Below are positions 1 to 17,043 of a stretch of DNA of 17,043 nt, in pieces. The notes under the pieces were generated by a model that searched no databases, had not been told where the DNA came from, and was given only the letters and a program-made list of their open reading frames with translations. Made by a program: the position numbers and the translations under genes. The stretch spans positions 1 to 17,043 of the forward strand of contig JAEOUE010000069.1 of NCBI GenBank assembly GCA_016839515.1. Reading direction: 5' to 3'. Position 1 is the first letter of the stretch. The number at the start of each line of letters is the position of its first letter. This DNA comes from Candidatus Hodarchaeum mangrovi. GTDB lineage: Archaea; Asgardarchaeota; Heimdallarchaeia; Hodarchaeales; Hodarchaeaceae.

Positions 1-2
1 GA

Positions 3-230
3 AGATGTATTGGAGGTTGTGAGGCTTGTTTTGGCGGTGAAATAACAGCTTATACCCAAAGTGCGATTGAGGCACGTAATGATGCCATCAACCGTTTATG
101 TTATCAAGTTCAACAAGTGGGAGGTAACGCAGTACTTGGGGTTAAATTTGATAGCTCACGATCTGGACAAGACTCCTCAATGACAGATATAGTGGCATAT
201 GGTACTGCGGTACGTGTTCGATCTAAATAA
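3..230 (+). CDS. YbjQ (UPF0145) family protein, 5'-truncated by the window edge
   Basis: Not in the ORF track. Manual translation of frame 3 gives RCIGGCEACFGGEITAYTQSAIEARNDAINRLCYQVQQVGGNAVLGVKFDSSRSGQDSSMTDIVAYGTAVRVRSK*. GGE..Y, EAR..A, GGNAVLGV and AYGTAV are YbjQ signatures. Confidence 0.88.
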   Translation, partial: RCIGGCEACFGGEITAYTQSAIEARNDAINRLCYQVQQVGGNAVLGVKFDSSRSGQDSSMTDIVAYGTAVRVRSK

Positions 231-263
231 GGAATAGTTGAAGCAATTTGTTGGGTAATAGGA

Positions 264-917: not shown

Positions 918-1067
918 TTATTTTCTTTATATTAGAAAATTATAGCTCTGTGTAATTATGAACTTAAAGAAAAAGATTTTGAATAATAATTCTTCGGCCT
1001 GAGATTATAAATACCTAAAAGAAAATAGTTTAGAGAGTTAAATATTATTCCTTATAACTAGTAAAGC

Positions 1068-2024: not shown

Positions 2025-2287
2025 CTTCTTAGAGCTCAGTTATACAAGAAAATTCAAATCTTTTCAAGGCTAAAAATACACCATTAGCCTTTTCAAAAAG
2101 CTTTCTAATAAGAAGTGGGTATTAAAAATTATTTATTATTTTTATCATTTCAGCAATTATACATTATTTGATTATTGCGTTTCTTTAATCGTTTTTGATT
2201 CGTTATTAAGTTTGTTGGAGTTTGTATTAGTTGTATTGGTCTTAAAATATCTTTTTAATGTGTAGTCAAATGTGACCCTTGACTATA

Positions 2288-2827
2288 TTAAGGAAGAATC
2301 AATTGAGGCAAACGCTTCATATAGGAATTGGACCCAATTTCTTTGGTTTTTTCATGTTCTCTAAATCCGAATTGACAATAAAAAGTCTTACAATTTAAAA
2401 TGTCTTCATTTGAAGGTTTACAATTAGGATTAATAAAGGGTAAGGCATGAAGAGTTAAGATCACTCCTAAATCATCTGCAAAGTGGATTAACTCATTCAT
2501 AATATAAGTAGCAAGTCCATTGTTACGAAATGTAGGTTCTGTCCAGAGAAGGCCTATATAGCAATTATTCCTCTTCGGATTCCAACTAAAAGAAACACTC
2601 CCCGCAACAATAAAATCATTGTTGTGTCGTTCGCCAATGTCAATAAAACATCGTAATGTCTTTTTATGATCTATAGCCTTCTTTAATGAGAAGTTTTCGT
2701 CCAGAAAGATCTTATCCATACTACTAGCCATGAAACGATGGACCTGTTTGCTTAAACGTAGTTCAATGTTTAAGTCCCAAGATTTCAAAAACGAGTGATT
2801 TTCATCAATTTCTATAATAGAAAGCAT
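2288..2827 (-). CDS. GNAT-family N-acetyltransferase
   Basis: Acetyl-CoA motif A (LWTEPTFRNNGLAT) and C-terminal FY..FGF motif. Confidence 0.82.
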   Translation of the reverse strand: MLSIIEIDENHSFLKSWDLNIELRLSKQVHRFMASSMDKIFLDENFSLKKAIDHKKTLRCFIDIGERHNNDFIVAGSVSFSWNPKRNNCYIGLLWTEPTFRNNGLATYIMNELIHFADDLGVILTLHALPFINPNCKPSNEDILNCKTFYCQFGFREHEKTKEIGSNSYMKRLPQLILP

Positions 2828-3187
2828 AAATATTCTCCGAAGTCAAATAATTATTCTAGTTTCCCCTATTTAAGATTTGGGGAATTAACAAAAAGGTAAA
2901 AAAGAGACCGTTGAAATTAATGAATAATTAAATTTAATATTTCAAAAAAACTTAAAACTTTCTAGATTTAGTCTAAATTACCTTTGAATTGATAACAGTT
3001 CAATTGGGTCTTTTTATTTACACTAGTTAAATCAGATAATTGTAAACAACTTAAAATTAATATTTCTGTTCAGTTTATTTTTATTATACTTAAAAGAAGA
3101 AACTTTAACCTCTCAATATTTATTTAAAAGACATAAACAATGAAATACGTTATATTTTCACTTAAAAAACATCATTTGTTGTTTAAA

Positions 3188-3574
3188 ATGAATGATAATA
3201 TAAGATTTGGACATCATTTTGAAATCTGCTTTTCTGTTAAATACCTTCAAGAGAGTATAGACTATTACATAAACCTAGGATTCAAAATTTATACAGGAGG
3301 AAAAAATAAAGGGTGGTGTATTGTAACAGATGACATGATTTACCTTGCTATGTTTCCAGACAATTTTATTGAAAAAGAATTTGGAATACCTGTGCTTTTT
3401 AATTATCGGGGAGGAAATATTCAAAAAATCGTTGCATTCCTCAAGAAAAGAGGAATAAAATTTTCAAAAGAAAGAATTTTAGAAAAAAGAACAGGAGAGG
3501 CAATCTTTACAGATATTAATGGACAGGTTTTTTATTTAGATACAAGTCCTAAAGAAGAAAGAATAGATCATTAA
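3188..3574 (+). CDS. VOC (glyoxalase/bleomycin resistance) family protein
   Basis: Pattern HFEICFSVKYLQESIDYYINLGF ... FLKKRGIKF ... FTDINGQVFYL. In-frame ATG 3188 is preferred over the track start at 3140 because the fold begins there. Confidence 0.82.
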   Translation: MNDNIRFGHHFEICFSVKYLQESIDYYINLGFKIYTGGKNKGWCIVTDDMIYLAMFPDNFIEKEFGIPVLFNYRGGNIQKIVAFLKKRGIKFSKERILEKRTGEAIFTDINGQVFYLDTSPKEERIDH

Positions 3575-3625
3575 TAGCAGAGAGAAATATTAATCATAAT
3601 TTGAACTAGCTGCGAAGGGAAAAAA

Positions 3626-4090
3626 ATGAGTATCCTACAAATATTTGAACCAAGAATGGAAAGAGCAGGTCTGTTTGCAGAGGAAGATAGTTTAATGAAA
3701 GCGTTAAAGGAATTAAAAGATCCTAAATTATCATATAAGCGATCTACTCGTGGATATACTTTATTATACAATTCAAAACCAGCTAATCCAATAATTGCGG
3801 GAAAATTACGTGATGAGGTAGAAAAAGCACTCCATCACGTTCATGCATATTATATTAAGTACATGGCTACTCGTGATTTAGCGAAAAATGGATTTAAACT
3901 TTTAACTACCATAAATTCAGATAAAAGTTTTGATATAGTCTTTCAACACGATAAAGATTCAAATAAGTCAATAAAGATTAGTACTCATTACGATTCATGG
4001 CTAGTTAATTTAGAATTAAACGGTTATAAGTCAGAAGAAACAGATTTTCTTTCTGAATTACAAGCTAGAATTGGAAAACAATTATCCTGA
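3626..4090 (+). CDS. Hypothetical protein, possible DUF1257 (Ycf35-like) + DUF2997-like fusion
   Basis: 154-aa ORF with GAAGGG upstream. L.KAL.EL, Y...(K)NGFKL...D.S..IV and KSIKIS..D...V.LE..GY...L..RIG recall the two families from memory only. Confidence 0.45.
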   Translation: MSILQIFEPRMERAGLFAEEDSLMKALKELKDPKLSYKRSTRGYTLLYNSKPANPIIAGKLRDEVEKALHHVHAYYIKYMATRDLAKNGFKLLTTINSDKSFDIVFQHDKDSNKSIKISTHYDSWLVNLELNGYKSEETDFLSELQARIGKQLS

Positions 4091-4235
4091 AAACGCTCTT
4101 GAAGAAAAAATCAGAATCTATACTTTTTCAAAGGAAATACTTCTATTATTTACAATGATAATTATTAAAAACTATTCATTTTAATATTTTTAGAATATTG
4201 ATTCACAATGAAATTTGTACAGTAAACTGAAATCC

Positions 4236-4259
4236 TTTAAATTATGAAAAATTCATAAT
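4236..4259 (+). promoter_or_regulatory. TATA-like TTTAAATT overlapped by inverted repeat ATTATGAA-N3-TTCATAAT (candidate operator)
   Basis: Perfect 8-bp arms at 4241-4248 and 4252-4259, about 70 nt upstream of the regulator ATG. The AT-rich background limits significance. Confidence 0.35.
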
Positions 4260-4329
4260 GAATAATGTATAATAGACGAATTTAGTATAATTTATTGCTA
4301 TTAAATTTCTTTAAGTTGGAATTAAAAAA

Positions 4330-5361
4330 ATGCCAAAAGATATTACGCGTAGCTTACAGCTCACAGGGGCTAGAACATACTTGGTAAGTTTACCAAGAGA
4401 ATGGATTGAACAGAATGGGTTAGAAGCAAAAGATGAAATAGGAATAAGGATGGAAAATGAAATTTATTTACTACTATACCCAAGAAATCCGCGAAAATTT
4501 CCCCGAAAGACAACTACAATTTTTGAAGATGATACTGTTGAACTAGAATTGCTAGCTAGGTATGTAACAGGCTTTGACACAATGCTAGTATACCCAATGG
4601 ATTCTAAAAAAATTAAAGATCCTGATAAGATCCGAGAAGAAATCAGACATCAAATCGGTCTTGAAATTATCCGTGAATCTCCGGGACAACTCGAAATTCA
4701 ATTTATCGCTTCTTCAGCTTTAGATTTACAGACTCTTGTTAGAAAAATTTATGCTCTTTCATTTAGTATGCTTGATGATTCTATTAATGCTATCTTCAAT
4801 TCAGATCAAGAGATTAAAGAACGGATCATAAGACGCTATTCTGAGGTGGATCGTGTTTATTATTTTATTGTAAGACTTCTCCAACAAGCTTTAACTGATC
4901 CTTTAGAGGAGATAAATTTATACCCTTATGAATGTTTAAATTATCAAATTGTAGCTTATCAAGGGGAAGTTTTAGGCAAATCCTGTCGAGAGTTAGCAAA
5001 TAGAATTGGAAGATTTCAAAATTCTTTTTTAACTTCTGAAACTGAATCTATGGTAAAGGAAATAACTGATAAGTTGATAGAACTCCTAGATGATTCAATT
5101 GAAGCGTTCTTGAACAAAGATATGGAACGAGCTAAAATCACTTTTAATGAAGTAAAAAATAAAAAATATCAAGTCCAACCTATGCTAGCCATTATATCGG
5201 AAGAGGCAGCAGACGAACCTACTTGGTTTTTAGCAACATTGTTATCAAGTTTACTTGAACGAGCCGATCAAGTATGCTATTTAACAAATTTAGTTACTCG
5301 TGGATTCAAAGCATTGGAAGAATATCATTCAAAAAGTTATTTAGATTCAGAAATAGCTTGA
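4330..5361 (+). CDS. Archaeal-type AbrB/SpoVT + tandem PhoU-domain regulator
   Basis: N-terminal RSLQLTGARTYLVSLPREWIEQNGL is the archaeal AbrB-PhoU signature, followed by ARYVTGFD, GLEII.E, EVDRVY and LLERAD PhoU-repeat motifs. Confidence 0.88.
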   Translation: MPKDITRSLQLTGARTYLVSLPREWIEQNGLEAKDEIGIRMENEIYLLLYPRNPRKFPRKTTTIFEDDTVELELLARYVTGFDTMLVYPMDSKKIKDPDKIREEIRHQIGLEIIRESPGQLEIQFIASSALDLQTLVRKIYALSFSMLDDSINAIFNSDQEIKERIIRRYSEVDRVYYFIVRLLQQALTDPLEEINLYPYECLNYQIVAYQGEVLGKSCRELANRIGRFQNSFLTSETESMVKEITDKLIELLDDSIEAFLNKDMERAKITFNEVKNKKYQVQPMLAIISEEAADEPTWFLATLLSSLLERADQVCYLTNLVTRGFKALEEYHSKSYLDSEIA

Positions 5362-5495
5362 TTTAGTTATCTAGTTTATTTATTGAATCGGTTAACCCTT
5401 GAAACAGAAATATCATATATTCTGTTGCACTAATTACAAAAATAAATCTATTCAAGAAAAAGTCTAATTCTTAATTGAGGACTGAGGTAGTTGAA

Positions 5496-6731
5496 ATGGA
5501 TAAATTAGCTGTTCTTGGAGGAGAACCTGTAAGAAAAACACCTCTCTCATTCTTCAAAGTAAATTTAGGTGAGGAAGAAACTTCAAACGTTGTAGAAGTT
5601 TTGAAATCTGGAAATCTGGTTCAAACCCATGGAAAGTGGGCAAATCTATTTGGAGAATTGGCAAAAGAGTATTTGGGTTCAAAATACTCTGTGATTGCAA
5701 ATAATGGTACTAGTACAATGCATTTGGCGTTAATCGCCTTAGAAATAGGCCCTGGTGATGAGGTAATATGTTCTCCCTTGGGATGGATATCAAGTGGAAC
5801 AGTTTGTTTATATCAGAATGCAGTTCCGATTTATGCAGATGTCGATCCGATTTTTGGATTCATTGATCCAGAAGATGTCGTGAAAAAAATAACCCCACGA
5901 ACCAAAGCTGTCTCGGTTGTGCATACTTGGGGACTTCCCGCTGATTTAGATCCTCTCGTTGAAATTTGTGAGGAAAGAGATATCCTAATTATTGAAGACG
6001 CGGCAGAGGCTTTAGGTGCCACTTATAAAAATAGAAAGGTTGGAACAATAGGAACATTTGGTAGTTTTTCTACAGTATGGAACAAAATTATAACAACAGG
6101 GGAAGGGGGATTTCTTGTTACAGATGAGGAGGATCTAGCTAAAAGAGCAAAACATTTTGGGAATTTTGCAAAGGTTCCTAATAAAGGGGATTATTTTGAT
6201 GGTTTAGGATATAATTATAGAATGACAGAATTAATGGGAGCTTTAGGGGTTGCTCAGATAAAAATGATCGATCATCTGATTGAAAAGAGACAAAACAATG
6301 CAGATTATTTGACCAAACAAATAGATTCATTAGGAATTAATGGAGTTCATCCTGCTTATCAGCCAAGCTATGGAAAAGGAGTTTTTTGGAAGTACACCAT
6401 TCGTCTTGATTTAGTTAACTATAAAGTCTCACGCAATGAAATCGTACGTGCTCTTAAGGCTGAGGGAATTCAATGTGATGCTCCTGTTTTACCTGATAAT
6501 ATGCAACCTCTTTATGAAAATCAAACAGTTTATGGTACTACACATTGTCCTTGGGACTGTAAATATTATAAAGGGCCTAAAGAAATTGATTATACCAATA
6601 TGACTCCAATTGCAAAAGAATATTCAGATCGTGCAATCTGGTTAACAGGTTGTGGACCACACTTAACAAAGGTTGACCTTGATTCAATTGTGCTTGCTCT
6701 TGAAAAAGTCTTGAAATGGTATCAACGATAA
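5496..6731 (+). CDS. DegT/DnrJ/EryC1/StrS-family PLP-dependent sugar/cyclitol aminotransferase
   Basis: NGT..MHLAL, GPGDEVI, IIEDAAEA (PLP Asp), SFS...NKIITTGEGG (Schiff-base Lys), GYNYRM. ATG 5496 has GAGGT at 5484-5488 and is preferred over TTG 5475. Confidence 0.93.
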   Translation: MDKLAVLGGEPVRKTPLSFFKVNLGEEETSNVVEVLKSGNLVQTHGKWANLFGELAKEYLGSKYSVIANNGTSTMHLALIALEIGPGDEVICSPLGWISSGTVCLYQNAVPIYADVDPIFGFIDPEDVVKKITPRTKAVSVVHTWGLPADLDPLVEICEERDILIIEDAAEALGATYKNRKVGTIGTFGSFSTVWNKIITTGEGGFLVTDEEDLAKRAKHFGNFAKVPNKGDYFDGLGYNYRMTELMGALGVAQIKMIDHLIEKRQNNADYLTKQIDSLGINGVHPAYQPSYGKGVFWKYTIRLDLVNYKVSRNEIVRALKAEGIQCDAPVLPDNMQPLYENQTVYGTTHCPWDCKYYKGPKEIDYTNMTPIAKEYSDRAIWLTGCGPHLTKVDLDSIVLALEKVLKWYQR

Positions 6732-6744
6732 ATGGTGATAATAA

Positions 6745-7422
6745 TTGAAATATTCAAAAAGACAATTTGCTAAATTTTTAGATCATTCAGCGTTAAAACC
6801 TTTTTTTGGAGAACAAGATATCATACGAATGGCTACAGAAGCAAAGAAATGGGAATTTGCAGCTCTTTCGATAAATCCTCATTATACAGCACTAGCAGCT
6901 CGTGAGTTAAAAGGAACAGATATTCGTGTAAATCCGTGTATTGCTTTTCCATTTGGAGCTATTTCTCCCGAATGGAAAGCATGGGAAGCTGAAATGTGTA
7001 TTCGACAGGGAGCAACTGAAATCGATATGGTAACTAATATTGGAGCTATAAAAGAGGGAAAATGGAATTTAGTTCGAAAGGATATTGAGTCGGTTGTAAA
7101 TGTTGCTAAAGATATAGAAGTTAAAGTCATAATTGAAACTGCTTATTTAACTGATGATTTAAAAATCAAAGCAGCATTAGTGGTAGCTGAGGCAGGAGCT
7201 GCCTATGTAAAAACAAGTACAGGTTATGCTCCTACTGGAGCGACTATTCATGACGTAAAATTACTTTATAATACGGTTGGGGATCGAATTAAAGTGAAAG
7301 CAGCAGGAGGAATCCGTCATTACGAGGATGCTGTTGTAATGATTCAATCTGGGGCGAGTCGAGTTGCATCAAGTTCAACAATTCAAATTATGACAGAAGG
7401 AGGATTTCACGACTCAGCCTAA
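6745..7422 (+). CDS. deoC: Deoxyribose-phosphate aldolase-like class I aldolase
   Basis: LDH..LKP, FP.G, GATEIDMV, VKVIIET, VKTSTG (Schiff-base Lys), VKAAGGIR. TTG start with GGTGA upstream, 13 nt after the aminotransferase stop. Confidence 0.88.
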   Translation: MKYSKRQFAKFLDHSALKPFFGEQDIIRMATEAKKWEFAALSINPHYTALAARELKGTDIRVNPCIAFPFGAISPEWKAWEAEMCIRQGATEIDMVTNIGAIKEGKWNLVRKDIESVVNVAKDIEVKVIIETAYLTDDLKIKAALVVAEAGAAYVKTSTGYAPTGATIHDVKLLYNTVGDRIKVKAAGGIRHYEDAVVMIQSGASRVASSSTIQIMTEGGFHDSA

Positions 7423-7577
7423 AAAGATAAATAATAGTAAATTTTTTAATACATAGAAAATTTTTTCGTACGTATGAGGCCCTTCAGATCGGATAAGATC
7501 TATTAGTTTCTCTTCTGTATCTTTTAAAATTCATTATTTCAAAGACTAGATTCTTTATCCCTATTGATTTTAATTTT

Positions 7578-7596
7578 GAAAGGATAGATTTATATA
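7578..7596 (+). promoter_or_regulatory. Candidate archaeal promoter (purine-rich BRE-like run + TTTATATA) for the EIIC gene
   Basis: GAAAGGATAGA followed by TTTATATA at 7589-7596, about 92 nt upstream of ATG 7689. Confidence 0.5.
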
Positions 7597-7688
7597 TTAA
7601 TAGGATATTATTCATTACTCTGATTTTGAGATGATTAATACTCTCAAAATAAAATATCAGTAAAAACATCATTCGTTGGTGTTTAAAA

Positions 7689-9290
7689 ATGACTATAATG
7701 CAAGATACATTTTTTGATGCAATAAATGAAATACTACGACCCCCAATTGACTTTTTGTTTGCCGGTGGTCCAGTTATTTTCATGCCAGTTATTATTATCA
7801 TTTTGGGATTGATTTTCAGACAAGGGCTTTCCAAGTCTATCCGAAGTGGTATATTAATTGGTATAGGGTTCATTGGTATATTCACATTTGCTTTTGATGT
7901 CTTTGGTGGAACGATTGGTCCTGCAGCTGCAGCATTCGTACAGAACACAGGCATAAACCTTACTGCAATTGACGCGGGTTGGGGTTTGGCCAGTAGTATC
8001 ACTTGGGCAATGCCAACAGCATTTGGAGTTATTATATTATGTTTCATTGTAAACTTAATAATGTTGGCTCTTGGGACCAAAGCATTCAACTTCCAAGGAA
8101 AGACATTTCGAATTGGAACCCTTACATTAGATATAGACCTCTGGAACTATTGGGCTTTTGGATTTACTGCAGCATTGACTTACATTATGACCCGTGACTA
8201 CATTGGTGAACTGGGTGCATATGTCTTGGCCATGATTTTTGCTATAATCCATGCAATTATGGCCTTCAAAATATCAGATTGGATTGCACCTTGTATGGCT
8301 GATCCAGAAAACTTCAATTTACCTGGTATTTCATTACCTCACGGTAATGCAATGATGGCTCCCTATGCTTTTGCCATTGATAAAGTTTTACGAAAAATCC
8401 CTGTTATTGGAAAGGCAAAAGCAGATCCTGAATCAGTACAAGAACGATTTGGTCTCATTGGAGAACCAATTTTCCTCGGATTAGTCATTGGTGCCATTAT
8501 CGGTTTTCTTGGATATTTTGAAGGATTATTAGACCTTAGTACTTTCTGGGACACATTAGGGACGATCGCTAATGTCGCAATGGTTTCTGCAGCTGTGATG
8601 TATTTAATACCCAAGATGATCGCAGTTCTTATGGAAGGACTTATTCCACTATCCGAAGGTATTCGGGATGTTATTACCAAAAGATATCCTGGTCGTGAAT
8701 TTATAATCGGAATGGATATGGCGATAATTATTGGGTACCCTGCAGTCATTGCTGTAGCTTTACTTATGATCCCAATCTCCATCCTACTCTCTGTCTTTCT
8801 CAGCTTTCTTCCTGCACCATTTGGGATAATTGTATTACCCTATGTGGACTTAGCGGGTATGGTCTTTTATTCTGTCTTAGCTATTATGCCATCAAAAGGG
8901 AACATCGTACGTGGTGTTATTTCAGGAACGATCCAACTTGTCTTCATCCTATATACAGCAGGTGTCATGGCTCCGCTAATGACAGCTGCAGGAGCAGAAG
9001 CAATAGCTCAGGGATTCGAATTTGGTTTAGCAGATGTTGAAGAAGTCTTTGGATCAGGTTTGACAATTACATCGCTAGATGCAGGAAGCAATGCAGTACA
9101 TTGGATGTTGATATTATTAGTATTCCCATTGTTCACGTTAGAAGCATGGACCGACATCTTCACTTCTGGAGGTTATCTGATTTGGTTTGTTATTGATATC
9201 GCATGGTGGATTGGTTATATCCTACTATGGTTCTATTTACGAGACGAACCAACTAAGATTTCTGAAGAAAAAATCCATACAATGGAATGA
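7689..9290 (+). CDS. PTS galactitol-family (GatC/SgcC-like) EIIC permease
   Basis: 533-aa polytopic membrane protein with GIGFIGI, IDAGW, DIDLWNYW, GISLPHG, GLIGEP..LG...G, LMEGLIPLS, IGMD and GNIVR motifs collinear with GatC. Confidence 0.92.
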   Translation: MTIMQDTFFDAINEILRPPIDFLFAGGPVIFMPVIIIILGLIFRQGLSKSIRSGILIGIGFIGIFTFAFDVFGGTIGPAAAAFVQNTGINLTAIDAGWGLASSITWAMPTAFGVIILCFIVNLIMLALGTKAFNFQGKTFRIGTLTLDIDLWNYWAFGFTAALTYIMTRDYIGELGAYVLAMIFAIIHAIMAFKISDWIAPCMADPENFNLPGISLPHGNAMMAPYAFAIDKVLRKIPVIGKAKADPESVQERFGLIGEPIFLGLVIGAIIGFLGYFEGLLDLSTFWDTLGTIANVAMVSAAVMYLIPKMIAVLMEGLIPLSEGIRDVITKRYPGREFIIGMDMAIIIGYPAVIAVALLMIPISILLSVFLSFLPAPFGIIVLPYVDLAGMVFYSVLAIMPSKGNIVRGVISGTIQLVFILYTAGVMAPLMTAAGAEAIAQGFEFGLADVEEVFGSGLTITSLDAGSNAVHWMLILLVFPLFTLEAWTDIFTSGGYLIWFVIDIAWWIGYILLWFYLRDEPTKISEEKIHTME

Positions 9291-9319
9291 TAAGGATCCT
9301 ATTTGTAACTCCAAATCCC

Positions 9320-9362
9320 TCCTTTCTTTTTTTTCTTTAACACTAAGAAAATTTTCATTTTT
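9320..9362 (+). terminator. Oligo-T tract, candidate archaeal-type terminator after EIIC
   Basis: TCTTTCTTTTTTTTCTTT about 30 nt after the stop, more T runs downstream, no GC hairpin. Confidence 0.4.
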
Positions 9363-9429
9363 ATCAAAAATAAGCGCATTTAATCCATTAAACAAAACTT
9401 TTTACATTTCACCTTTCTTTCCCTTGCTT

Positions 9430-9441
9430 AAAATTTATAAA
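9430..9441 (+). promoter_or_regulatory. Candidate TATA box (AAAA-TTTATAAA) for the EIIB gene
   Basis: TTTATAAA at 9434-9441, 44 nt upstream of ATG 9486. Confidence 0.4.
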
Positions 9442-9485
9442 TAGAGAGATGAGTAATATTAAAAAAGATCTGTTGGTTTATAGAA

Positions 9486-9803
9486 ATGTCAAAAAAAATA
9501 TTAGTAGCATGTGGTACTGCTATTGCTACTGCAACTGTTGTTGCAACGAAAATTAAAGATTTATTAAGGGAAAACAAGATAAAAGCAGAGATTTCTCAAT
9601 GTAAATCATTTGAAGTAAAAGGAAAAGTGAATTATCAGAAATATGATTTGATTGTATCAACTACTAAAGTGTCTGGTGAAGTAACTGAGGGAGAGACAAG
9701 AACAATCAATGGTGTTCCTATTCTGAACGGAATTCCCTATCTTACTGGTATGAAAAAAGATATTTTAGATCAAGATATTCTAAAGATTCTAAAAGGTATT
9801 TAA
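9486..9803 (+). CDS. PTS galactitol-family EIIB component
   Basis: KKILVACGTAIATAT P-loop with phospho-Cys, plus QC, DLIVSTT and G.PYLTG, all GatB-like. Confidence 0.93.
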   Translation: MSKKILVACGTAIATATVVATKIKDLLRENKIKAEISQCKSFEVKGKVNYQKYDLIVSTTKVSGEVTEGETRTINGVPILNGIPYLTGMKKDILDQDILKILKGI

Positions 9804-9955
9804 GTTGTCAAGCTAAATTCATGTGTTTTTTGTTGCGAGTTGAATTTTTTAATACTTGTTAGTTCTGTTGTTTTAATTACTGATGATTCAAATATTGTTT
9901 TTTCTTTAATTTTTTTGATAAAATCCATTATAAACACATAAGGAAGAGTTATTAC

Positions 9956-10582
9956 ATGAAAAAATCACAAGCTTTAACCCAGATCAAACGTGAAATGGCT
10001 ACTGTTTGCCGAAAAATTTATGAAAAAGGTTTGACTTATAGTACGGGAGGCAATATTAGTGTACGTATAGGGGAAGACTCTTTTTTAATCAAACCTGCTG
10101 ACTATTGTTTTGGGGATTTAAAAGGTAGGGATTTTATAGTAGTTAATAGTAGAGGAGAAAAAATGATTGGTCCTAAGGGTAACAGACCCTCCAGTGAAAC
10201 ACCAATGCATGTAACTATCTATCGAGACTTAAAGGATATTAATGCCGTTATCCATGCCCATTCTCCTTATACTCTTGTTTTTGCTACTATGGGAGTTCCC
10301 ATTGAACCAGCAACAACATTTGCTGAAGAAGAGCTTGGCTTAGTCCCTTTAGCTCCTTATCGTGATCCAGGAACTCAAGATCTGGCAGAAATCGCTGCTC
10401 AAACATTGAAAAAAGTAGAAAAAAACCTCTATCCACCTGCTAAAACACCTGCAATTGCTTGTCTTTTAGAAAGGCATGGTGTTCTAGTTGCCGGAAAAAA
10501 TCTACGTCAAACATTCTATGCATTAGAATCACTAGAAACGACAGCAAGAACAATATTATGGATGAAAACAATTCAAAACTAA
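9956..10582 (+). CDS. Class II aldolase/adducin-family protein (FucA/AraD-like aldolase, epimerase or decarboxylase)
   Basis: GGNISVR, PSSETPMH (catalytic Glu), HAHSP and LERHG (three Zn-binding His). Confidence 0.92.
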   Translation: MKKSQALTQIKREMATVCRKIYEKGLTYSTGGNISVRIGEDSFLIKPADYCFGDLKGRDFIVVNSRGEKMIGPKGNRPSSETPMHVTIYRDLKDINAVIHAHSPYTLVFATMGVPIEPATTFAEEELGLVPLAPYRDPGTQDLAEIAAQTLKKVEKNLYPPAKTPAIACLLERHGVLVAGKNLRQTFYALESLETTARTILWMKTIQN

Positions 10583-10608
10583 AAAATTCTTTTATCGTGG
10601 AGATAATT

Positions 10609-11664
10609 ATGTATCCAGATGAAATGAAAGTTGCTTTAATGTATGGGGCTAAAGATATACGAATTGAAACGGTCCCAATCCCGAAAATTGAAGAAAATGA
10701 GGTTTTAGTCAAAGTTGAGTCTGTAGGTATTTGCGCTACGGACGTAAAAAAATATATTGGTGTTTCGTCATGTAAATTTCCAATTATATTAGGACACGAA
10801 TTGGCTGGATCAATTGTCAATCTTGGTTCCAATGTAACGGGATATAAAAATGGAGATCGCGTTAGTGCTAATCCTGATATGCCTTGTTTTAAGTGTAAAT
10901 ACTGCCGTCAATCGAAATTCAATCTGTGTAATAATTTAGCTGTTATTGGATATGGAACAGAGGAGATTGAACCTATTAATGGAGCCTTTGCCCAATATGT
11001 TAAGATTCCAGCTTGGAATCTCATAAAACTTGAAGATACGATTACTTATGATCAAGGAACATATATTGAACCCTTCGCTTGTGTAATCCGAAGCTTCAAC
11101 CTTGCTAAAATCAGTCCAACAGATTCTATTTTGATTCTTGGTGATGGAAGAATAGGACTATTGCATACACAACTTGGAAAGGAATCAGGAGCAGATAGAA
11201 TAATTGTTACAGGACTTTCAAAGGATCGATTAGTATTAGCAAAGAAATTAGGTGCACATGAGGTAATTAATGTCCAAAACATCGATCTTTTGAAATATAT
11301 TAAAGAACACATTTCAGATGGGGTGGATGTAGTTTTTGATACTACTGGGGTAGTATCTGCAGCAGAACAGGGAGTTCAGTTATTAGCACCCCATGGACGA
11401 TTTATTGCTTTTGCAGGTTTTCCTAAAGGACAAAATATGATGATTAATCCACGAGATTTGCATTATAAAGAAATTATTTTAACAGGTTCCTTTGGGTATG
11501 GATCACCTATGGATTATTATCATGCAGGTCATTTAATTGCAGCAAAACGCATTAAAGTTGACGAACTTACATCTCGGGTACGTCCATTAAATGGGATTGA
11601 AGAAGGTTTTATAGAAATCAGTGAATTGAAAAGTATAAGAACTATAATTCATCCTCAAGAATAA
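10609..11664 (+). CDS. Zn-dependent medium-chain polyol/sugar-phosphate dehydrogenase
   Basis: GICATD and GHE (catalytic Zn), CFKCKYC..SKFNLC (structural Zn), EP, GDGRIG Rossmann loop. ATG 10609 has GGAG at 10599-10602; the track start 10459 overlaps the previous gene. Confidence 0.92.
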   Translation: MYPDEMKVALMYGAKDIRIETVPIPKIEENEVLVKVESVGICATDVKKYIGVSSCKFPIILGHELAGSIVNLGSNVTGYKNGDRVSANPDMPCFKCKYCRQSKFNLCNNLAVIGYGTEEIEPINGAFAQYVKIPAWNLIKLEDTITYDQGTYIEPFACVIRSFNLAKISPTDSILILGDGRIGLLHTQLGKESGADRIIVTGLSKDRLVLAKKLGAHEVINVQNIDLLKYIKEHISDGVDVVFDTTGVVSAAEQGVQLLAPHGRFIAFAGFPKGQNMMINPRDLHYKEIILTGSFGYGSPMDYYHAGHLIAAKRIKVDELTSRVRPLNGIEEGFIEISELKSIRTIIHPQE

Positions 11665-11730
11665 TCACTAATTATTCAATCCTCAAATTTCATTAACTAA
11701 TTAGATAGTAAAATTTTAGCTGGATATAGA

Positions 11731-12795
11731 ATGGCAGAATTAAATAACAAACATGAAAATATAATCAAGTACATACTACTTTTAGATAAATGGAGATCCC
11801 GACAAGCCATTGAAGAAGAAATTAGTGCTTTATCACTCGTTGGGGAGAAATTTTTCCCAAACCAAACAAAAGATGCATTAAAACTCGTCAATTCTCTTAC
11901 ATGTGATCAAAATTTTCCCCTTTTATATAAGATATATCAACCAATTCAAAAATTTACCATTGCTTTAACTCTAGTTTTTGTTTTTTTTATTTTCTCATAT
12001 ACAACGAAGTCTTTTGCTTATGAACTGGCAGGGTCTCTTATTTTTAATCCGTTATTTATTTTAACTGTTTTATCTTCCTTTATAATTGCTGGTATAGTAA
12101 TGTATACATATAGAAAGAAATCTTGGGAATTTAGAAGTGCCAATATCGATAAATTACAGAATTTTAAACCAATTATTGAGGAATTAATCAAAGATCTTGT
12201 TCCACTAGCAATCGAAAGGAAATTTATTCCAAAAAAATATCCTATTCAATTAAATCATAATGATTACATAGGATTACGACTCGTAGGCTCATCTGGATCC
12301 ACTTTTCACATGGTTTTTTCATTATCTCATGCCCTGCTTCTTAATTCCCGTGAAGCTCACATTATGACGTATATGGGACGACTTTCGTTCTTTGATGGAC
12401 TTCCAGGTTTTAGAGGGGGAAAACCTTCTATTAAACTAATAGTAAGTCAAATAGCTGGAGATATCAAACCTTATCTAAAAAAATGTGCGGATTGGAGAAT
12501 GCAAGGTGTTGATGTTCTTGTAAGAAGAAGTAATCCAGATCAAATCAAAAAGAGCTATATCATATTGGATGAAGAAACGGTATGGATTTCAAGTCAGCAC
12601 CTAGAGGAATTAGATTTCCAAGATATAGTCCTTATAGATAAAATGAATAAACCTGAAGAAAAAAAGAAAATAATTTCTCGTTTTGAAAAACTTTGGGAAA
12701 CGTCTCAGATTTCTGATGAACTAGAAGCAATATCTTGGAGGACGTATTTCAAGGAACAGAGAAAAGAAGAGAAATTAAAAGGAAAAAGCGAATGA
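11731..12795 (+). CDS. Hypothetical 2-TM membrane protein with a possible degenerate PLD/TrmB-like C-terminal domain
   Basis: Two hydrophobic helices at about aa 76-127. C-terminal KKSYIILDEETVWISSQHL ... FEKLWE has PLD-fold spacing but lacks HKD. Confidence 0.5.
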   Translation: MAELNNKHENIIKYILLLDKWRSRQAIEEEISALSLVGEKFFPNQTKDALKLVNSLTCDQNFPLLYKIYQPIQKFTIALTLVFVFFIFSYTTKSFAYELAGSLIFNPLFILTVLSSFIIAGIVMYTYRKKSWEFRSANIDKLQNFKPIIEELIKDLVPLAIERKFIPKKYPIQLNHNDYIGLRLVGSSGSTFHMVFSLSHALLLNSREAHIMTYMGRLSFFDGLPGFRGGKPSIKLIVSQIAGDIKPYLKKCADWRMQGVDVLVRRSNPDQIKKSYIILDEETVWISSQHLEELDFQDIVLIDKMNKPEEKKKIISRFEKLWETSQISDELEAISWRTYFKEQRKEEKLKGKSE

Positions 12796-12837
12796 AACAA
12801 AATTATTCAGGATCTTTTACATATTTTAGCTAAAAAA

Positions 12838-14565
12838 TTAAATTTTTGTTGTCGGGTCAATAGATAAGAATTTTCGTACTTCGGGAGCTCCAGATAAATT
12901 TAATACTGTCTTTACAATATTCTTACATTCATCTAATGAAAGACTAGAAATTTTTCTCTTTACTCTTGGAATCGAACTTGGATTCATGCTCAATTCATCT
13001 ATTCCTAATCCAAGTAATATTGGTGTAGCCAAAGTTTCACTAGCCAACTCTCCACAAATTCCTACCCATTTTCCATATTTTTTAGCTACTTCTACTACTT
13101 TTTGAATTAGAAAGAAGATAGAAGGATGATAATGATCATAGATGGCAGCCATTTGTTCATTAGTTCTGTCTGCAGCTAATAAATATTGAGTTAAATCATT
13201 TGTTCCTATACTAAAAAAATCTATATATGGTGCAATATTTTCCGCACAAATAGCGGCAGCAGGAACTTCTACCATTATCCCAATTTCAACTGATTTAGCA
13301 ATTTCATATCCCTCTTCTTCTAATTCTTTTTTACATTGCTTCACCATTGTTGATAATTCATCTATTTCCTCAAAGATTGAAACCATAGGAAACATTATTT
13401 TTAAATGCCCATCAAAGGAAGCTCTTAAAGCAGCTCTTATTTGTGATCTTAAAACATCTTTTAAGTTCTCATTCAAGAGAAATCTTGATCCACGAAGGCC
13501 TAAAAATGGATTATTCTCTTTTCTAAGGTTTAAAAATGGTATATTCTTATCTCCACCAACATCGAGAGTTCTTAAGACAACGGGTCTACCTTTCATTGCT
13601 TTTAGGACTTTTTTATAGGTAGAATACTGTATGTCCTCCTCTGGCAATTTTTCATTCTTTAAATAGAGAAATTCTGTTCTGAATAAACCAATTCCATCAG
13701 CCCCATTCTCTAAAGCTTGGTTGACTTCCTCTACAGATCCAATATTCGCAAATACTTTGAATTCATAGCCATCCTTAGTCTTCGCTTTTCTAGTAGAAAA
13801 TCTCTTATTCTCATGCTCTTCCTCATAAAAAGTAGTTTGTATTGCTTTAAATTTATTGAGAGTCTTTTCATCTGGATTGATTATAATTTTTCCATTATTT
13901 CCATCAATTATAGCAAAATTATTTTCTTTCGCCGTTTTAATGAGTTCTTTAGCCCCAACTACAGCTGGTACATTTAAGGCTCTAGCAATGATTGCAACAT
14001 GTGATGTTGATCCTCCTAATTCTGTGGCAAATCCAAGAATTTTATCTTTATCCATTTCTGCGGTATCAGAAGGTGTCAGTTCCTTAGCAATGATAATTAC
14101 TTCATTTTTGAGATTCGAAAGCAATGAAGGACGCTTTCCTGATAGTGTTTTCAAAATTTGTTTTCCAACATCCTTGATGTCGCTGGACCTTTCCTTGAAA
14201 TATTGATTTTTCATATGATTGAATTTCTCTACATAATCATTAGTGACGTTTAGAATGGCTTGATCAAGACTTATATTTTCCCGTAATTTTTGAATGATTG
14301 ATTCTTGAAAATCATTATCTTCTAACATTAGTATTTGAGCATCAAAAATAGCTGCTTCCTTGAAACCAATCTCTTTTTCAGTTTTCTTTGTTAGTTCCTC
14401 AAGATATGAAATTGTATTCAAAATTGCTTCCTTGAAAATTTGTATTGAATTCTCGATTGGTAATAATTTGAATTTTGATAAATCAAAATTTGATACCTGA
14501 TCATAAAATAAAATATTTCCTATTGCAATTCCGTTTGAGGCAGGTATACCATAGACTAGATTCAT
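12838..14565 (-). CDS. ptsI: PTS enzyme I (phosphoenolpyruvate-protein phosphotransferase)
   Basis: 575 aa; AS.GIAIG, GGSTSHVAIIAR (phospho-His), GIGLFRTEF, RTLDVGGDK, NPFLGLRG, MVEVP, SIGTNDLTQY, GICGE. Confidence 0.97.
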   Translation of the reverse strand: MNLVYGIPASNGIAIGNILFYDQVSNFDLSKFKLLPIENSIQIFKEAILNTISYLEELTKKTEKEIGFKEAAIFDAQILMLEDNDFQESIIQKLRENISLDQAILNVTNDYVEKFNHMKNQYFKERSSDIKDVGKQILKTLSGKRPSLLSNLKNEVIIIAKELTPSDTAEMDKDKILGFATELGGSTSHVAIIARALNVPAVVGAKELIKTAKENNFAIIDGNNGKIIINPDEKTLNKFKAIQTTFYEEEHENKRFSTRKAKTKDGYEFKVFANIGSVEEVNQALENGADGIGLFRTEFLYLKNEKLPEEDIQYSTYKKVLKAMKGRPVVLRTLDVGGDKNIPFLNLRKENNPFLGLRGSRFLLNENLKDVLRSQIRAALRASFDGHLKIMFPMVSIFEEIDELSTMVKQCKKELEEEGYEIAKSVEIGIMVEVPAAAICAENIAPYIDFFSIGTNDLTQYLLAADRTNEQMAAIYDHYHPSIFFLIQKVVEVAKKYGKWVGICGELASETLATPILLGLGIDELSMNPSSIPRVKRKISSLSLDECKNIVKTVLNLSGAPEVRKFLSIDPTTKI

Positions 14566-14581
14566 TACCCAACATCACTCC

Positions 14582-14854
14582 CTATTCTTCACCAAATTTA
14601 TTTTCAATAAGGGATACCAACTTCTCTTTTGCTTCAAGTGCATCTTCTCCCTCAATGTATACCGTTATTGTATCACCCTTTTCAACCCCTAAACCAAGCA
14701 CACCTAAAATCATTTTAGCATCAGCTTTGTTCCCATCTTTAATTACAGTTATTTCTGAAGAAAATTTTTTTGCAGTTCTTACAAATAGTGCTGCTGGTCT
14801 GGCATGTAATCCTACTCGATTTTGTAAAGTTGCAGTAAATTGAGTTTTTGTCAT
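14582..14854 (-). CDS. ptsH: Phosphocarrier protein HPr
   Basis: 90 aa; GLHARPAA (His17, equivalent to His15), G..GD.I...EGED, directly upstream of ptsI. Confidence 0.96.
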   Translation of the reverse strand: MTKTQFTATLQNRVGLHARPAALFVRTAKKFSSEITVIKDGNKADAKMILGVLGLGVEKGDTITVYIEGEDALEAKEKLVSLIENKFGEE

Positions 14855-14874
14855 TATTAGTAGTTCCTTTTATT

Positions 14875-15327
14875 TTATTGAATATCAATTAACCTTCTTA
14901 AAATTTGAGCACTTGCGATAAGATCAGAGGTATTTCTAAGTTGTGCTACTACTTCTGGATTACTAAAAACATTATCCGTTAAAGCTTTTAAATTTGGAAC
15001 TACCATCTGAGGTTCACTAATAGCAAGTAAAAATACTAAATGAATCTTAATTTTTTGTTCTGGGTCCTCCATATTTTCCCAAAAAATAGGAGTTTGTAGA
15101 ATTCCAACTGCTATAGCAGGTTTGATTACATGTTCAGTTTCAGCATGTGGAATAGCAACATTATATTCCCCTTGAAGCTCTAATCCTGTCGGAAAATTTT
15201 GTTCACGGACATGAATCGCTGTTTCGTAAGATTCTTTTACATATCCTTTGACTAAGAGAAAGGAGAACAATTCATGTACAACTTCTTCCTTATTCCTAGC
15301 ATTTGAATTAATGATAAATATCTCCAA
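14875..15327 (-). CDS. PTS EIIA component (GatA-like, Fru/Mtl/Gat EIIA fold)
   Basis: GYVKESY, REQNFPTGL, VAIPHAE (phospho-His), F..M, LVFLLAI. TTG start with GGAAGG 9 nt upstream. Confidence 0.93.
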   Translation of the reverse strand: MEIFIINSNARNKEEVVHELFSFLLVKGYVKESYETAIHVREQNFPTGLELQGEYNVAIPHAETEHVIKPAIAVGILQTPIFWENMEDPEQKIKIHLVFLLAISEPQMVVPNLKALTDNVFSNPEVVAQLRNTSDLIASAQILRRLIDIQ

Positions 15328-15462
15328 ATTTTTTTTCCTTCCAACGCTAATATAGGATTAAGGATAGTTGGATTTTCAAATTGACCCCAACTATATCATA
15401 TTGAAAAAGGACAAATTATTGAAAGTTATTAATAATTAGTAATCGACATTTTGTATAATTTG

Positions 15463-15906
15463 TTATTTATTTTTTTCTTCTTTATTCCCAATAATGGAAA
15501 CAAAAACCTTCCTCTTCCTTGCCTCAATGTATTCTATGAAATAGACTCTTTGCCAAGTCCCTAAAACAAGTTTCATTTTATCTATACCTATAAAAATTGA
15601 ATTCCCTATCATTTGAGCCTTTACATGTGCTGCAGAATCTAATGGACTTTCTTCAATATGATTCCAGGCTCTATTTTCAGGTACAAGGTTCCATAGTATC
15701 TCTGATACATCTTTTCCAACACCTGGATCCGATCCTTCGTTTACAACAAGACCTGTTGTGGTATGCATACTATAAGCTAGTAAAATGCCAGATATTATTT
15801 TTTTATCTGTAATTATTTGTTGAAGATCCTCTGTTATGTCATGATATGTACCAGCATTTTCAGTATTTATAACAACATAATCAGTGAATATTTTTAATTG
15901 TGACAT
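15463..15906 (-). CDS. yjbQ: YjbQ/UPF0047 family protein
   Basis: DIT, HTTTGLVVNE, D, H.E...AAHVKA, LGTWQRVYFIE and R.R motifs. Confidence 0.9.
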   Translation of the reverse strand: MSQLKIFTDYVVINTENAGTYHDITEDLQQIITDKKIISGILLAYSMHTTTGLVVNEGSDPGVGKDVSEILWNLVPENRAWNHIEESPLDSAAHVKAQMIGNSIFIGIDKMKLVLGTWQRVYFIEYIEARKRKVFVSIIGNKEEKNK

Positions 15907-16079
15907 TTATTGCAACCTTCATTAAAATTCTTTCATGGTATTTTCCAAAGAGTTATTAATATTAGTTTTGAAATCAATTTTACTTTCTGTTTGTTGGAGA
16001 AATCTTTTTTTCCATCTCAGGGTTAAAGGAATTACTCAATTTTAAAACATTTATCACATGATATTGATTAAATTATGGT

Positions 16080-16895
16080 ATGGGACAAAATATGACTTGC
16101 TTAGATGAAATATTTGGGATTAATAAACCCGTAATCGGGATGATTCATTTTCCTCCTCTTCCTAGTACTCCAGAATATAATGATAAGGAAGGATTACAGC
16201 AGATTTGGACAAGTACAAAACAAGATTTACTAGCATTACAGGAAGGAGGAATTGATGGGGTATTATTCTGTAATGAGGGTGACCGCCCCTATGCAAAGAG
16301 TGTCAATCCAGTTATTGTGGCTACAATGGCAGCTATTATCGGCCAATTAAAAAATGACATTTCTGTTCCCTTTGGTGTTGATATTATGTGGGATCCAGTT
16401 TCTGCTTTTGCACTTGCAAAAGGTACAGGTGCCAAGTTTATCAGGGGAGTCTTTACTGGAGCATTCGCAGGTGATATGGGATTTTTTGATGCAAACGGTG
16501 CAGAAGCACTTAGATTTCGAAAATCAATTGATGGTTCTGATATTAAAATTTTTAGTATTGTAAATGCGGAATTTGCGTATCCTCTTGATCAACGATCTCT
16601 AGCTCTTATTGCTAAAGGAGCAGTATTTGTTGGAATAGCTGATGCACTCTGCGTTTCAGGTCCTATGACTGGAATGGAAGCTAAATTGAATGAACTCAAA
16701 ATTGTTAAGGAAAACTCATTAGGGGCCGCAGTAATAGTAAATACAGGTGCTAGAATGGACAATATTGAAAAACAATTAGAAATTGCTGATGCTGTTATAG
16801 TGGGAACAAGCTTGAAGTTTGGAGGGGATACATGGAACAATGTAGATGTATCACGAGTAAAAGAGTTTATGCAGGTCGTTAGAAAAATTCGTTAA
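16080..16895 (+). CDS. BtpA/SgcQ family TIM-barrel protein
   Basis: KPVIGMIHFPPLP..P, LQEGGIDG..F.NEGDRPY, PFGVD, A.FIR, ADALCVSG..TG, NTG and ADAVIVGT.LK. Alternative ATG at 16092. Confidence 0.93.
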   Translation: MGQNMTCLDEIFGINKPVIGMIHFPPLPSTPEYNDKEGLQQIWTSTKQDLLALQEGGIDGVLFCNEGDRPYAKSVNPVIVATMAAIIGQLKNDISVPFGVDIMWDPVSAFALAKGTGAKFIRGVFTGAFAGDMGFFDANGAEALRFRKSIDGSDIKIFSIVNAEFAYPLDQRSLALIAKGAVFVGIADALCVSGPMTGMEAKLNELKIVKENSLGAAVIVNTGARMDNIEKQLEIADAVIVGTSLKFGGDTWNNVDVSRVKEFMQVVRKIR

Positions 16896-16935
16896 ATAAA
16901 ACTAAATCGTAAGACTTATTTTTTATGTGGTTATC

Positions 16936-17043
16936 ATGATAGAACTTCCTTTAACTACTAGATTTTTGAAAGCTTCCTTATTTGATCTAGATGGAGTTTT
17001 TATCGATAGCACACAGGGATGGGTGATGGCTCTTAAAGTAATC
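16936..17043 (+). CDS. HAD-superfamily phosphatase, 3'-truncated by the window edge
   Basis: Not in the ORF track. Manual translation gives MIELPLTTRFLKASLFDLDGVFIDSTQGWVMALKVI, with HAD motif I FDLDGVFIDS. Confidence 0.85.
   Translation, partial: MIELPLTTRFLKASLFDLDGVFIDSTQGWVMALKVI

Follow-up and report, generated by a model that had tools for sequence, protein, structure and literature searches.

The galactitol (gat) operon of Escherichia coli and the pentitol operons of Gram-positive bacteria, all based on a phosphotransferase system (PTS), carry polyol-phosphate dehydrogenases. In Bacillus subtilis, kanosamine is reportedly made by the NtdABC enzymes, that is, the dehydrogenase NtdC, the DegT-family aminotransferase NtdA, said to act on 3-oxo-glucose-6-phosphate, and the HAD phosphatase NtdB. 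With few exceptions, DegT enzymes are annotated as aminotransferases that act on nucleoside diphosphate (NDP)-sugars for the building of glycans. According to two publications, the characterised archaeal PTS is the fructose system of Haloferax volcanii (PMC7997004, PMC12525153), and a 2021 survey of Asgard transporters reports no PTS protein in Asgard metagenome-assembled genomes (MAGs) or in the MK-D1 genome (PMC7997004). Here, we analyse the window, i.e., the complete 17,043-bp contig JAEOUE010000069.1 (C290) of the Asgard archaeon Candidatus Hodarchaeum mangrovi, which harbors a block of genes for a galactitol (Gat)-type PTS, a DegT-family aminotransferase, two enzymes of aldolase families, and a Zn-dependent dehydrogenase. 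To the reading that these are accessory genes for the catabolism of an aminated sugar or polyol in this Hodarchaeales-like archaeon we assign a probability of about 0.5. Every part belongs to a known family; what is new is how the parts are combined, the host in which they occur, and the role proposed for the DegT enzyme.

The block resembles the gat and pentitol operons in its Gat-family EIIC and EIIB, its type-2 EIIA, and a Zn-dependent medium-chain dehydrogenase related to GatD. However, the EIIC (307 bits with TIGR00827, cut-off 542) and the dehydrogenase (160 bits with the GatD model, cut-off 550) lie far under the galactitol equivalog cut-offs, and no galactitol-specific EIIC or EIIB score is reached in NCBIfam (the score with NF007643 is 65, cut-off 95). 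Moreover, the window lacks a GatY/GatZ-type aldolase and has its own Enzyme I (EI) and HPr, the DegT enzyme, an aldolase similar to L-fuculose-phosphate aldolase (FucA), a deoxyribose-phosphate aldolase (DERA), and an archaeal-type AbrB-PhoU regulator, in an archaeal host. With NtdABC, the window shares a DegT-family enzyme and a dehydrogenase, a nucleotide-free sugar phosphate as the proposed substrate, a HAD gene that lies nearby in two copies of the block, and detectable homology to NtdA. Nevertheless, the Ntd route is biosynthetic, whereas the window presents a context of uptake and aldol cleavage; its dehydrogenase is a Zn-dependent medium-chain enzyme and not a GFO/IDH/MocA protein (no PF01408 or PF02894 protein occurs in the window); NtdA is distant (E 7e-29 vs. 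2e-64 for perosamine synthase); and the HAD gene is not conserved in the block. A closer resemblance to NtdABC is found in a second PTS island of the same genome than in the window.

As in H. volcanii, a complete bacterial-type PTS adjoins catabolic enzymes in an archaeal genome, but that system is of the Fru and not the Gat family, belongs to another archaeal phylum, has other downstream enzymes, and includes no aminotransferase. GDP-perosamine synthases (PDB 3bn1 and 3dr4) share the fold family of the window DegT (match over residues 40–341) and are the closest solved relatives of a DegT subfamily whose members in our dataset carry a CPxxC insert; they use a GDP-linked 4-keto-6-deoxy sugar in glycan synthesis, whereas the window is devoid of NDP-sugar genes and its DegT clade is found in catabolic-type neighborhoods. 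A search of the literature outside subscription journals retrieved no report of an Asgard PTS for Hodarchaeales or Heimdallarchaeia and no relevant report of a catabolic, PTS-linked DegT enzyme; the literature on PDB 8GYH, 7B0M, and the EryC1 structure gave nothing relevant.

Conservation of the block and neighborhoods of its aminotransferase

We searched 22 genomes of the genus (the one under study and 21 congeners), 83 of the class, and 400 of the phylum. DegT orthologs (66–71% identity) were found in the genome under study and in six of the 21 congeners, whereas the remaining 61 genomes of the class have none; phylum-wide, one further relative (47% identity) is harbored by genome G115. The close relatives came from this genome search; a search of genome contigs gave no relative when probed with a single protein and homologs of at most 40% identity when probed with a profile. 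The EIIC-GAT family (PF03611) is present in 11 of the 400 phylum genomes and, within the genus, in exactly the seven that harbor DegT. In these seven genomes the DegT–PTS linkage, set beforehand as a test of the earlier note on this DNA, is kept in a single block. Among the congeners, EI orthologs are confined to five of the six that bear the block (G048 yielded none). Orthologs of the class II aldolase are likewise confined to these five and the genome under study, which are the six genomes with a full block.

The whole series from the regulator to SgcQ is arranged in identical order in G049, G064, and G052. G060 (on a contig starting at DegT) and G061 (split over two short contigs) have the series without DeoC, while in G048 (locus L104) the regulator, DegT, DeoC, EIIC, and EIIB genes are followed by an IS605 OrfB/TnpB gene. 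The occurrence of the same order in six other genomes and in a metagenome contig implies that the arrangement is not due to chance. In G051 (L227), instead of a block, a gap of 199 bp separates the regulator from SgcQ, and in G054 (L228) a DegT remnant of 70 codons (47% identity) comes after the regulator, with YjbQ and SgcQ next in line. In the light of these deletion scars and of the retained flanks, the segment from DegT to EIIA behaves as one unit, already present in an ancestor of some members of the genus. Deletion has removed it at least twice since then, and an insertion sequence (IS) once. Frames are intact and catalytic motifs kept in six genomes at 44–83% identity; divergence of this kind without disruption points to purifying selection.

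The metagenome contig mentioned above (L125) is a mosaic when compared with positions 1–10582 of the window. The genes upstream of the block are near-identical, and the regulator, DegT, and DeoC share 96%, 90%, and 94% identity with their window counterparts; the EIIC (63%), EIIB (64%), and class II aldolase (69%) lie further from the window than do the corresponding proteins of other species in the genus. This suggests that the transporter half of the block was swapped by recombination. The left 4.3 kb of the window (DUF2085, metallo-beta-lactamase, GNAT, and two unknown genes) is found again only on this near-identical contig, and is absent beside the block in the congener loci. The genes at 1–4329 are therefore not conserved next to the block, and the conserved unit begins at 4330.

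The assembly (4.0 Mb in 348 contigs, GC about 32%) is 91% complete, with 6% contamination. The nearest named homologs of DegT, EIIC, and the 354-aa membrane protein (44–79% identity) come from MAGs labelled Hodarchaeales, Hodarchaeota, or Heimdallarchaeota, and one contig that gave both a DegT and an EIIC match is labelled Thorarchaeota. Moreover, the block of G049 is embedded in a 631-kb contig, and that of G048 has archaeal GatD/GatE and a histone-fold gene as its neighbors. With such archaeal labels and archaeal flanks, contamination is not tenable as the source of the block.

The neighborhoods of the nearest DegT homologs were surveyed in 80 genome loci and 80 metagenome loci, which were screened by tblastn with three sets of queries: the window proteins, proteins from three further contexts, and eight NDP-sugar markers encoded in this genome. 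The screen revealed not a single NDP-sugar marker in the 32 loci whose DegT shares at least 38.5% identity with that of the window (0/19 for loci of at least 10 kb); markers appeared in 10 of 57 loci at 36.5–38.5% identity and in 17 of 76 below 36.5%. In a FastTree phylogeny, six PTS-linked DegTs form a clade (support 100) whose sister (99) consists of three rows, namely G115, its metagenome twin, and L150. Both fall within a clade of 64 rows (93) that includes one NDP-marker locus and many loci with kinases, transporters, dehydrogenases, aldolases, and GntR regulators; the neighboring clade of 65 rows (94) includes 22 NDP-marker loci.

In the loci of the sister clade, DegT is accompanied by an FGGY kinase, a thiamine pyrophosphate (TPP) enzyme, a flavoprotein with its 2Fe-2S partner, and an ATC-hydrolase-like gene, to which L150 adds MarR, an amino-acid permease, an MFS_2 sugar transporter, a DeoC/LacD aldolase, and a Zn-dehydrogenase. 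As judged from gene content, this is the same enzyme set with another uptake and phosphorylation step. A third context is that of an Anaerolineae clade, in which the genes divergent from a 435-aa DegT encode GntR/UTRA, a short-chain dehydrogenase/reductase (SDR), a class II aldolase, a xylose-isomerase-like barrel, three tandem PIG-L deacetylases, and the ATPase of an ABC transporter. This cluster, located at 2343–11320 of L006 and recurring in at least eight similar loci from Anaerolineae or metagenomes, looks like a catabolic set for an N-acetylated amino sugar. The core common to the three contexts comprises aminotransferase, dehydrogenase, and aldolase; its association with three unrelated types of uptake (PTS, MFS plus kinase, ABC) is what one would expect if it were a catabolic module.

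The DegT enzyme itself matches PF01041 with 283.4 bits (cut-off 19.8) over residues 31–360 of a 418-aa frame. It stays below every NDP-sugar equivalog cut-off of NCBIfam (LegC, PseC, ArnB, RfbH, WecE, DesI), with scores and cut-offs of 235/420, 207/423, 179/631, 146/423, 145/375, 139/650, and 110/435. Lys197 (in the context FSTVWNK), which we take to be the residue forming the Schiff base with pyridoxal phosphate (PLP), is a Lys in all 27 aligned homologs and invariant in 18 of 18 close relatives, as in an aminotransferase and unlike the His-bearing dehydratases of the ColD/E1 type. Besides the perosamine synthases, its solved relatives include further sugar aminotransferases, inosose aminotransferases (E about 1e-43), and NtdA. 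A DegT paralog is encoded on contig C265, beside NDP-sugar dehydratase-type genes and a nucleotidyltransferase; since that paralog occupies the classical NDP-sugar setting, the window DegT represents an additional copy. The Cys-rich C-terminal insert (HCPWDC, C351/C355) was considered as the marker of a special, perhaps metal-binding, catabolic clade and was rejected, because CPxxC is shared by the clade with NDP contexts and because the window DegT has a Thr in place of one of the four Cys residues.

Gene content and features of the encoded proteins

Genes were called from the listing of open reading frames (ORFs) together with Pfam and NCBIfam scans, in which 20 window ORFs were scanned (Table 1). 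All the genes that the earlier note had named as one run are present where it placed them. It had put DegT at the head of the run, a position held instead by the AbrB-PhoU regulator, which was missing from its list, as was the conserved 354-aa membrane protein. As for the HAD phosphatase it had included, a HAD-like frame does exist, merely as an N-terminal fragment, whose DLDG stretch resembles HAD motif I. Its statement that the window is free of NDP-sugar genes was borne out: no nucleotidyltransferase, NDP-sugar dehydratase, or glycosyltransferase family was detected by Pfam among the 20 ORFs, and the 12 PF16363 and 10 PF00483 matches retrieved from the whole genome are all located on other contigs. 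The NCBIfam cut-offs are reached in the window by DeoC, YjbQ, and BtpA alone.

Table 1. Genes of the conserved block and its neighbors, with positions in the window and family matches
Feature	Position	Strand	Match or remark
AbrB/SpoVT-PhoU protein, candidate transcription regulator, left border of the block	4330..5361	+	PF04014, PF01895
DegT/DnrJ/EryC1/StrS-family PLP aminotransferase, 411 aa	5496..6731	+	PF01041, 283 bits
DeoC (DERA-type class I aldolase), extra copy	6745..7422	+	TIGR00126, 235 bits
PTS EIIC, galactitol (Gat) type, 533 aa	7689..9290	+	PF03611, 199 bits
PTS EIIB (GatB/UlaB type)	9486..9803	+	PF02302, 44 bits
Class II aldolase/adducin-family enzyme, FucA-like	9956..10582	+	PF00596, 165 bits
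Zn-dependent medium-chain dehydrogenase, polyol/threonine dehydrogenase group	~10609..11664	+	PF08240, PF00107
Membrane protein, 354 aa, without assigned function	11731..12795	+	no Pfam/NCBIfam match
PTS Enzyme I	12838..14565	-	PF05524, PF00391, PF02896
HPr	14582..14854	-	PF00381, 100 bits
PTS EIIA, type 2, mannitol/fructose fold	14875..15327	-	PF00359, 89 bits
YjbQ/UPF0047 protein, membership of the block uncertain	15463..15906	-	PF01894, TIGR00149
SgcQ/BtpA-family phosphate-binding TIM barrel, right-hand neighbor of the block	16080..16895	+	TIGR00259, 263 bits
HAD-type hydrolase, 5' gene fragment cut by the contig end	16927..17043	+	39 codons, DLDG stretch

The EIIC, EIIB, and EIIA proteins all exceed the gathering scores of their Pfam families. 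The following residues we take to be those of the phospho-relay: His189 and Cys504 of EI (motifs GGSTSH and GICGE), the His of HPr (GLHARPA, equivalent to His15), the His of the EIIA motif AIPHA, and Cys9 of EIIB in the context VACGTA (all identified by eye). With EI, HPr, EIIA, EIIB, and EIIC encoded together and these residues kept, the Gat-family PTS is complete and self-contained. By eye, HPr has a Met and not a Ser at the position of the regulatory Ser46. Outside Hodarchaeales, the nearest homologs of EIIC share at most 50% identity (50% for P0140), and the named bacterial GatC-type proteins at most 41%. Near-identical DNA was found in 19 runs of eight studies, from sediment and soil metagenomes. 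Five small contigs from one RNA-library run, all within 7642–9164 (EIIC) and possibly due to DNA carry-over, give a weak hint of expression; that run did not cover the remaining genes and has no bearing on their expression.

DeoC scores twice the TIGR00126 cut-off (235 vs. 117), matches DERA structures in PDB (E 3e-63), and, by eye, keeps the motifs VKTSTG and KAAGGIR with the DERA lysines; a second DeoC (47% identity) is encoded on contig C153. The class II enzyme finds its best solved relatives in L-fuculose-phosphate aldolases (E 7e-22), with AraD at 1.5e-11, and, by eye, possesses the motifs SSE, HAH, and HG, presumably the FucA-type Zn ligands and Glu. It remains below the FucA equivalog cut-offs (64/400 with TIGR01086 and 94/264 with NF005302) and obtains similar sub-cut-off scores with the NCBIfam models of OtnC (117), an aldolase (110), and a 4-epimerase (108).

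The dehydrogenase may start at the Met at 10609 or at that at 10624. Its catalytic Cys and His, a structural Zn site of four Cys, and the motif GDGRIG are recognizable by eye. Tdh (192/380) and IolM (162/450) join GatD among its sub-cut-off NCBIfam scores, and its PDB relatives are a putative Zn-dehydrogenase followed by threonine, xylitol, sorbitol, and galactitol-1-phosphate dehydrogenases.

The 354-aa membrane protein occupies the same place in five congeners (44–66% identity), always between the dehydrogenase and EI. It has two hydrophobic stretches at residues 70–128 and a conserved C-terminal alpha/beta part; in its AlphaFold2 (AF2) model (pLDDT 67) the C-terminal half is of low confidence. 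Eleven homologs were detected, and the five named ones are labelled Hodarchaeales or Hodarchaeota, so that, as judged from them, the protein appears to be restricted to Hodarchaeales. A search in the Atlas gave a weak PLDc_2 lead (0.84), and no HxK motif was seen by eye.

Proposed pathway and alternative explanations

On the basis of gene content, motifs, co-inheritance and co-loss, and the catabolic-type neighborhoods of the DegT clade, a catabolic, nucleotide-free role of the DegT enzyme is supported by context. We can depict the following scenario. The Gat-type PTS, whose components are complete, would take up and phosphorylate the substrate; DegT would then remove the amino group from a nucleotide-free sugar or polyol phosphate, leaving a ketone, and the Zn-dehydrogenase, possibly with NADP as the cofactor, would interconvert ketone and hydroxyl. 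These two steps would represent the reverse of the NtdC/NtdA logic, in which oxidation precedes amination. The FucA-like class II aldolase, in keeping with its family and motifs, would finally cleave a ketose-1-phosphate into dihydroxyacetone phosphate (DHAP) and an aldehyde, and DeoC, where present, might provide an optional branch for a deoxy-aldose phosphate or acetaldehyde. If the amine sits on a carbon at which retro-aldol cleavage requires a hydroxyl, the need for an aminotransferase–dehydrogenase pair ahead of the aldolase would be explained. Our best guess for the substrate is an amino-deoxy-alditol or an amino-deoxy (possibly 6-deoxy) sugar. Sequence and context are the basis for inferring the class of the substrate and its nucleotide-free state, the order of the steps, and the deaminating direction. 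The more specific proposal of a DegT enzyme that is fed by a working bacterial-type PTS in Hodarchaeales, the Asgard group placed near the eukaryotes, and deaminates a nucleotide-free phosphorylated amino-polyol or amino-deoxy-sugar, the core being re-used with MFS and an FGGY kinase in the sister lineage, is put forward tentatively.

If true, this would represent a widespread and unrecognised salvage module for amino sugars, and a clade of DegT enzymes devoted to the breakdown of free sugar phosphates would change the reading of thousands of genes. It would also suggest that sediments offer an amino-sugar or amino-polyol nutrient that has escaped notice. The block illustrates how a bacterial-type uptake system is fitted into an archaeal genome: it brings its own EI and HPr, adjoins an archaeal-type regulator, and encloses the gene of a lineage-specific membrane protein. 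It also illustrates how readily such a system is lost again.

Three other explanations have to be considered. The genes might form a plain Gat-type PTS operon for a polyol or deoxy-sugar, in which the PTS, a polyol-phosphate dehydrogenase, and an aldolase or epimerase would constitute the whole pathway, DegT and DeoC being a separate or accessory module. A Gat-type EIIC together with a Zn-dependent polyol-phosphate dehydrogenase is the galactitol/pentitol pattern; GatD and other polyol dehydrogenases are found among the PDB and NCBIfam relatives of the window enzyme; and the differing histories of the left and right parts of L125 imply that the two halves can be exchanged separately. We nevertheless regard such an operon as unlikely, given that DegT and EIIC occur in exactly the same seven genomes and were lost together, that the sister DegT clade is again found with a sugar transporter, a kinase, a Zn-dehydrogenase, and an aldolase, and that no glycan-synthesis genes lie nearby that could give DegT another role. 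Alternatively, an imported sugar or polyol phosphate might be oxidised by the Zn-dehydrogenase, aminated by DegT, and dephosphorylated by the HAD enzyme into an amino sugar or amino polyol, such as a kanosamine-like antibiotic or a solute, as in an NtdABC-like biosynthesis. This is an improbable route for the present block: although dehydrogenase, DegT, and HAD genes are found together in the window and in G049, and NtdA is a detectable relative, the HAD gene follows SgcQ in just two of five loci, two aldolases lie within the block, and a dedicated set of EI, HPr, and EIIABC points to uptake for growth. In addition, related DegT clades reside beside GntR/MarR regulators, ABC or MFS importers, and kinases. 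Finally, the patchy distribution (seven of 22 genomes), the two deletions and the IS truncation, and the rarity of PTS genes in the phylum (11/400 for EIIC-GAT) would fit a decaying, horizontally acquired island whose function is gone. Intact frames and motifs in six genomes at 44–83% identity, which speak for purifying selection, and the recovery of near-identical DNA in the 19 metagenome runs, with EIIC fragments in the RNA library as a weak addition, make such decay very improbable.

Returning to the catabolism of an aminated sugar or polyol, several observations weigh against it. Among solved structures, GDP-perosamine synthases come closest to the DegT enzyme (E 2e-64). Instead of an aldolase, the class II enzyme may be an epimerase or a decarboxylase. 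In the dehydrogenase, a Gly was seen by eye after the second Rossmann strand, where an Asp is, we assume, usual in NAD-dependent relatives; the missing Asp hints at NADP use and leaves the direction of the reaction unfixed. DeoC is missing in two of the seven block copies (G060 and G061), and the inheritance of SgcQ, the regulator, and HAD is not tied to that of the block, whose repeated loss implies that it is dispensable. Furthermore, all seven copies of the DegT–PTS linkage belong to one genus and have a single origin, so that they count as one evolutionary observation and not as seven. The NDP-marker screen is a weak proxy, many loci being short, and the DegT tree was built with FastTree only, on 168 rows that do not include characterised nucleotide-free DegTs.

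Flanking genes and other PTS islands

Orthologs of the regulator are found at the head of the block in four congener loci (77–81% identity) and also in G051 and G054 (79–80%), both without the block. SgcQ scores 263 with the BtpA/SgcQ model TIGR00259 (cut-off 153); no sequence relative was found in PDB, the literature search gave nothing functional for it, and Foldseek with its AF2 model (pLDDT 97) retrieved generic phosphate-binding barrels alone (TM 0.5–0.64). The earlier note had listed both SgcQ and HAD in its run and proposed a pathway step for SgcQ or the class II enzyme. Intact SgcQ orthologs (72–76%) are present in G051, G053, and G054, all lacking the PTS block, and HAD adjoins SgcQ in two of the five loci that extend past SgcQ (the window and G049, where the ortholog is full-length, with 225 aa and HAD_2) and is absent from L102, L103, and L105. 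Neither is therefore counted as a pathway member; YjbQ, kept in the deletion scar of G054 and gone in that of G051, is uncertain. Past SgcQ, the other three loci have a GH13-like gene of 1143 aa, a UbiA gene, or an aldehyde:ferredoxin oxidoreductase (AOR). The last lies 3' of SgcQ in G060 (L105, 11442–13202), and a short AOR-like fragment is located near HAD in G049 (L101, 2958–3335). An AOR could dispose of the aldehyde made by the aldolase; the gene is not conserved. No 9-mer with at least three G/C was common to the upstream regions of at least four genomes in a search for a shared promoter or operator motif.

Other Asgard genomes also harbor PTS genes. EI and HPr are encoded in G089 (contig C15, L230) and G046 (C1, L119), and EIIC-GAT family genes in G089, G285, G286, and G290; none of these five genomes has a DegT ortholog. 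Since the window EIIC gave no tblastn match at 1e-6 in G089, G285, G286, and G290, their EIICs should belong to another branch of the family.

The second PTS island of the genome under study is located on contig C329 (loci L121 and L122; 366–16109 in L121). It comprises Man-type EIIC, EIID, EIIB, and EIIA with their own EI and HPr, together with a SIS-domain protein, a HAD protein, a DegT enzyme, a GFO/IDH/MocA dehydrogenase, a cupin-type glucose-6-phosphate isomerase (GPI), a ceramidase-like protein, and a DeoC/LacD aldolase. The search of the class yielded no EI of this type in the other 82 genomes. The island presents the same logic of uptake, dehydrogenase, and aminotransferase as the window block, which we count in favor of the catabolic reading of the latter. 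The best PDB matches of its DegT are the scyllo-inositol transaminase 7b0d (E 6e-87) and then QdtB. Its triad of dehydrogenase, DegT, and HAD mirrors NtdC, NtdA, and NtdB, and the island could represent an uptake route for a kanosamine-like amino sugar.

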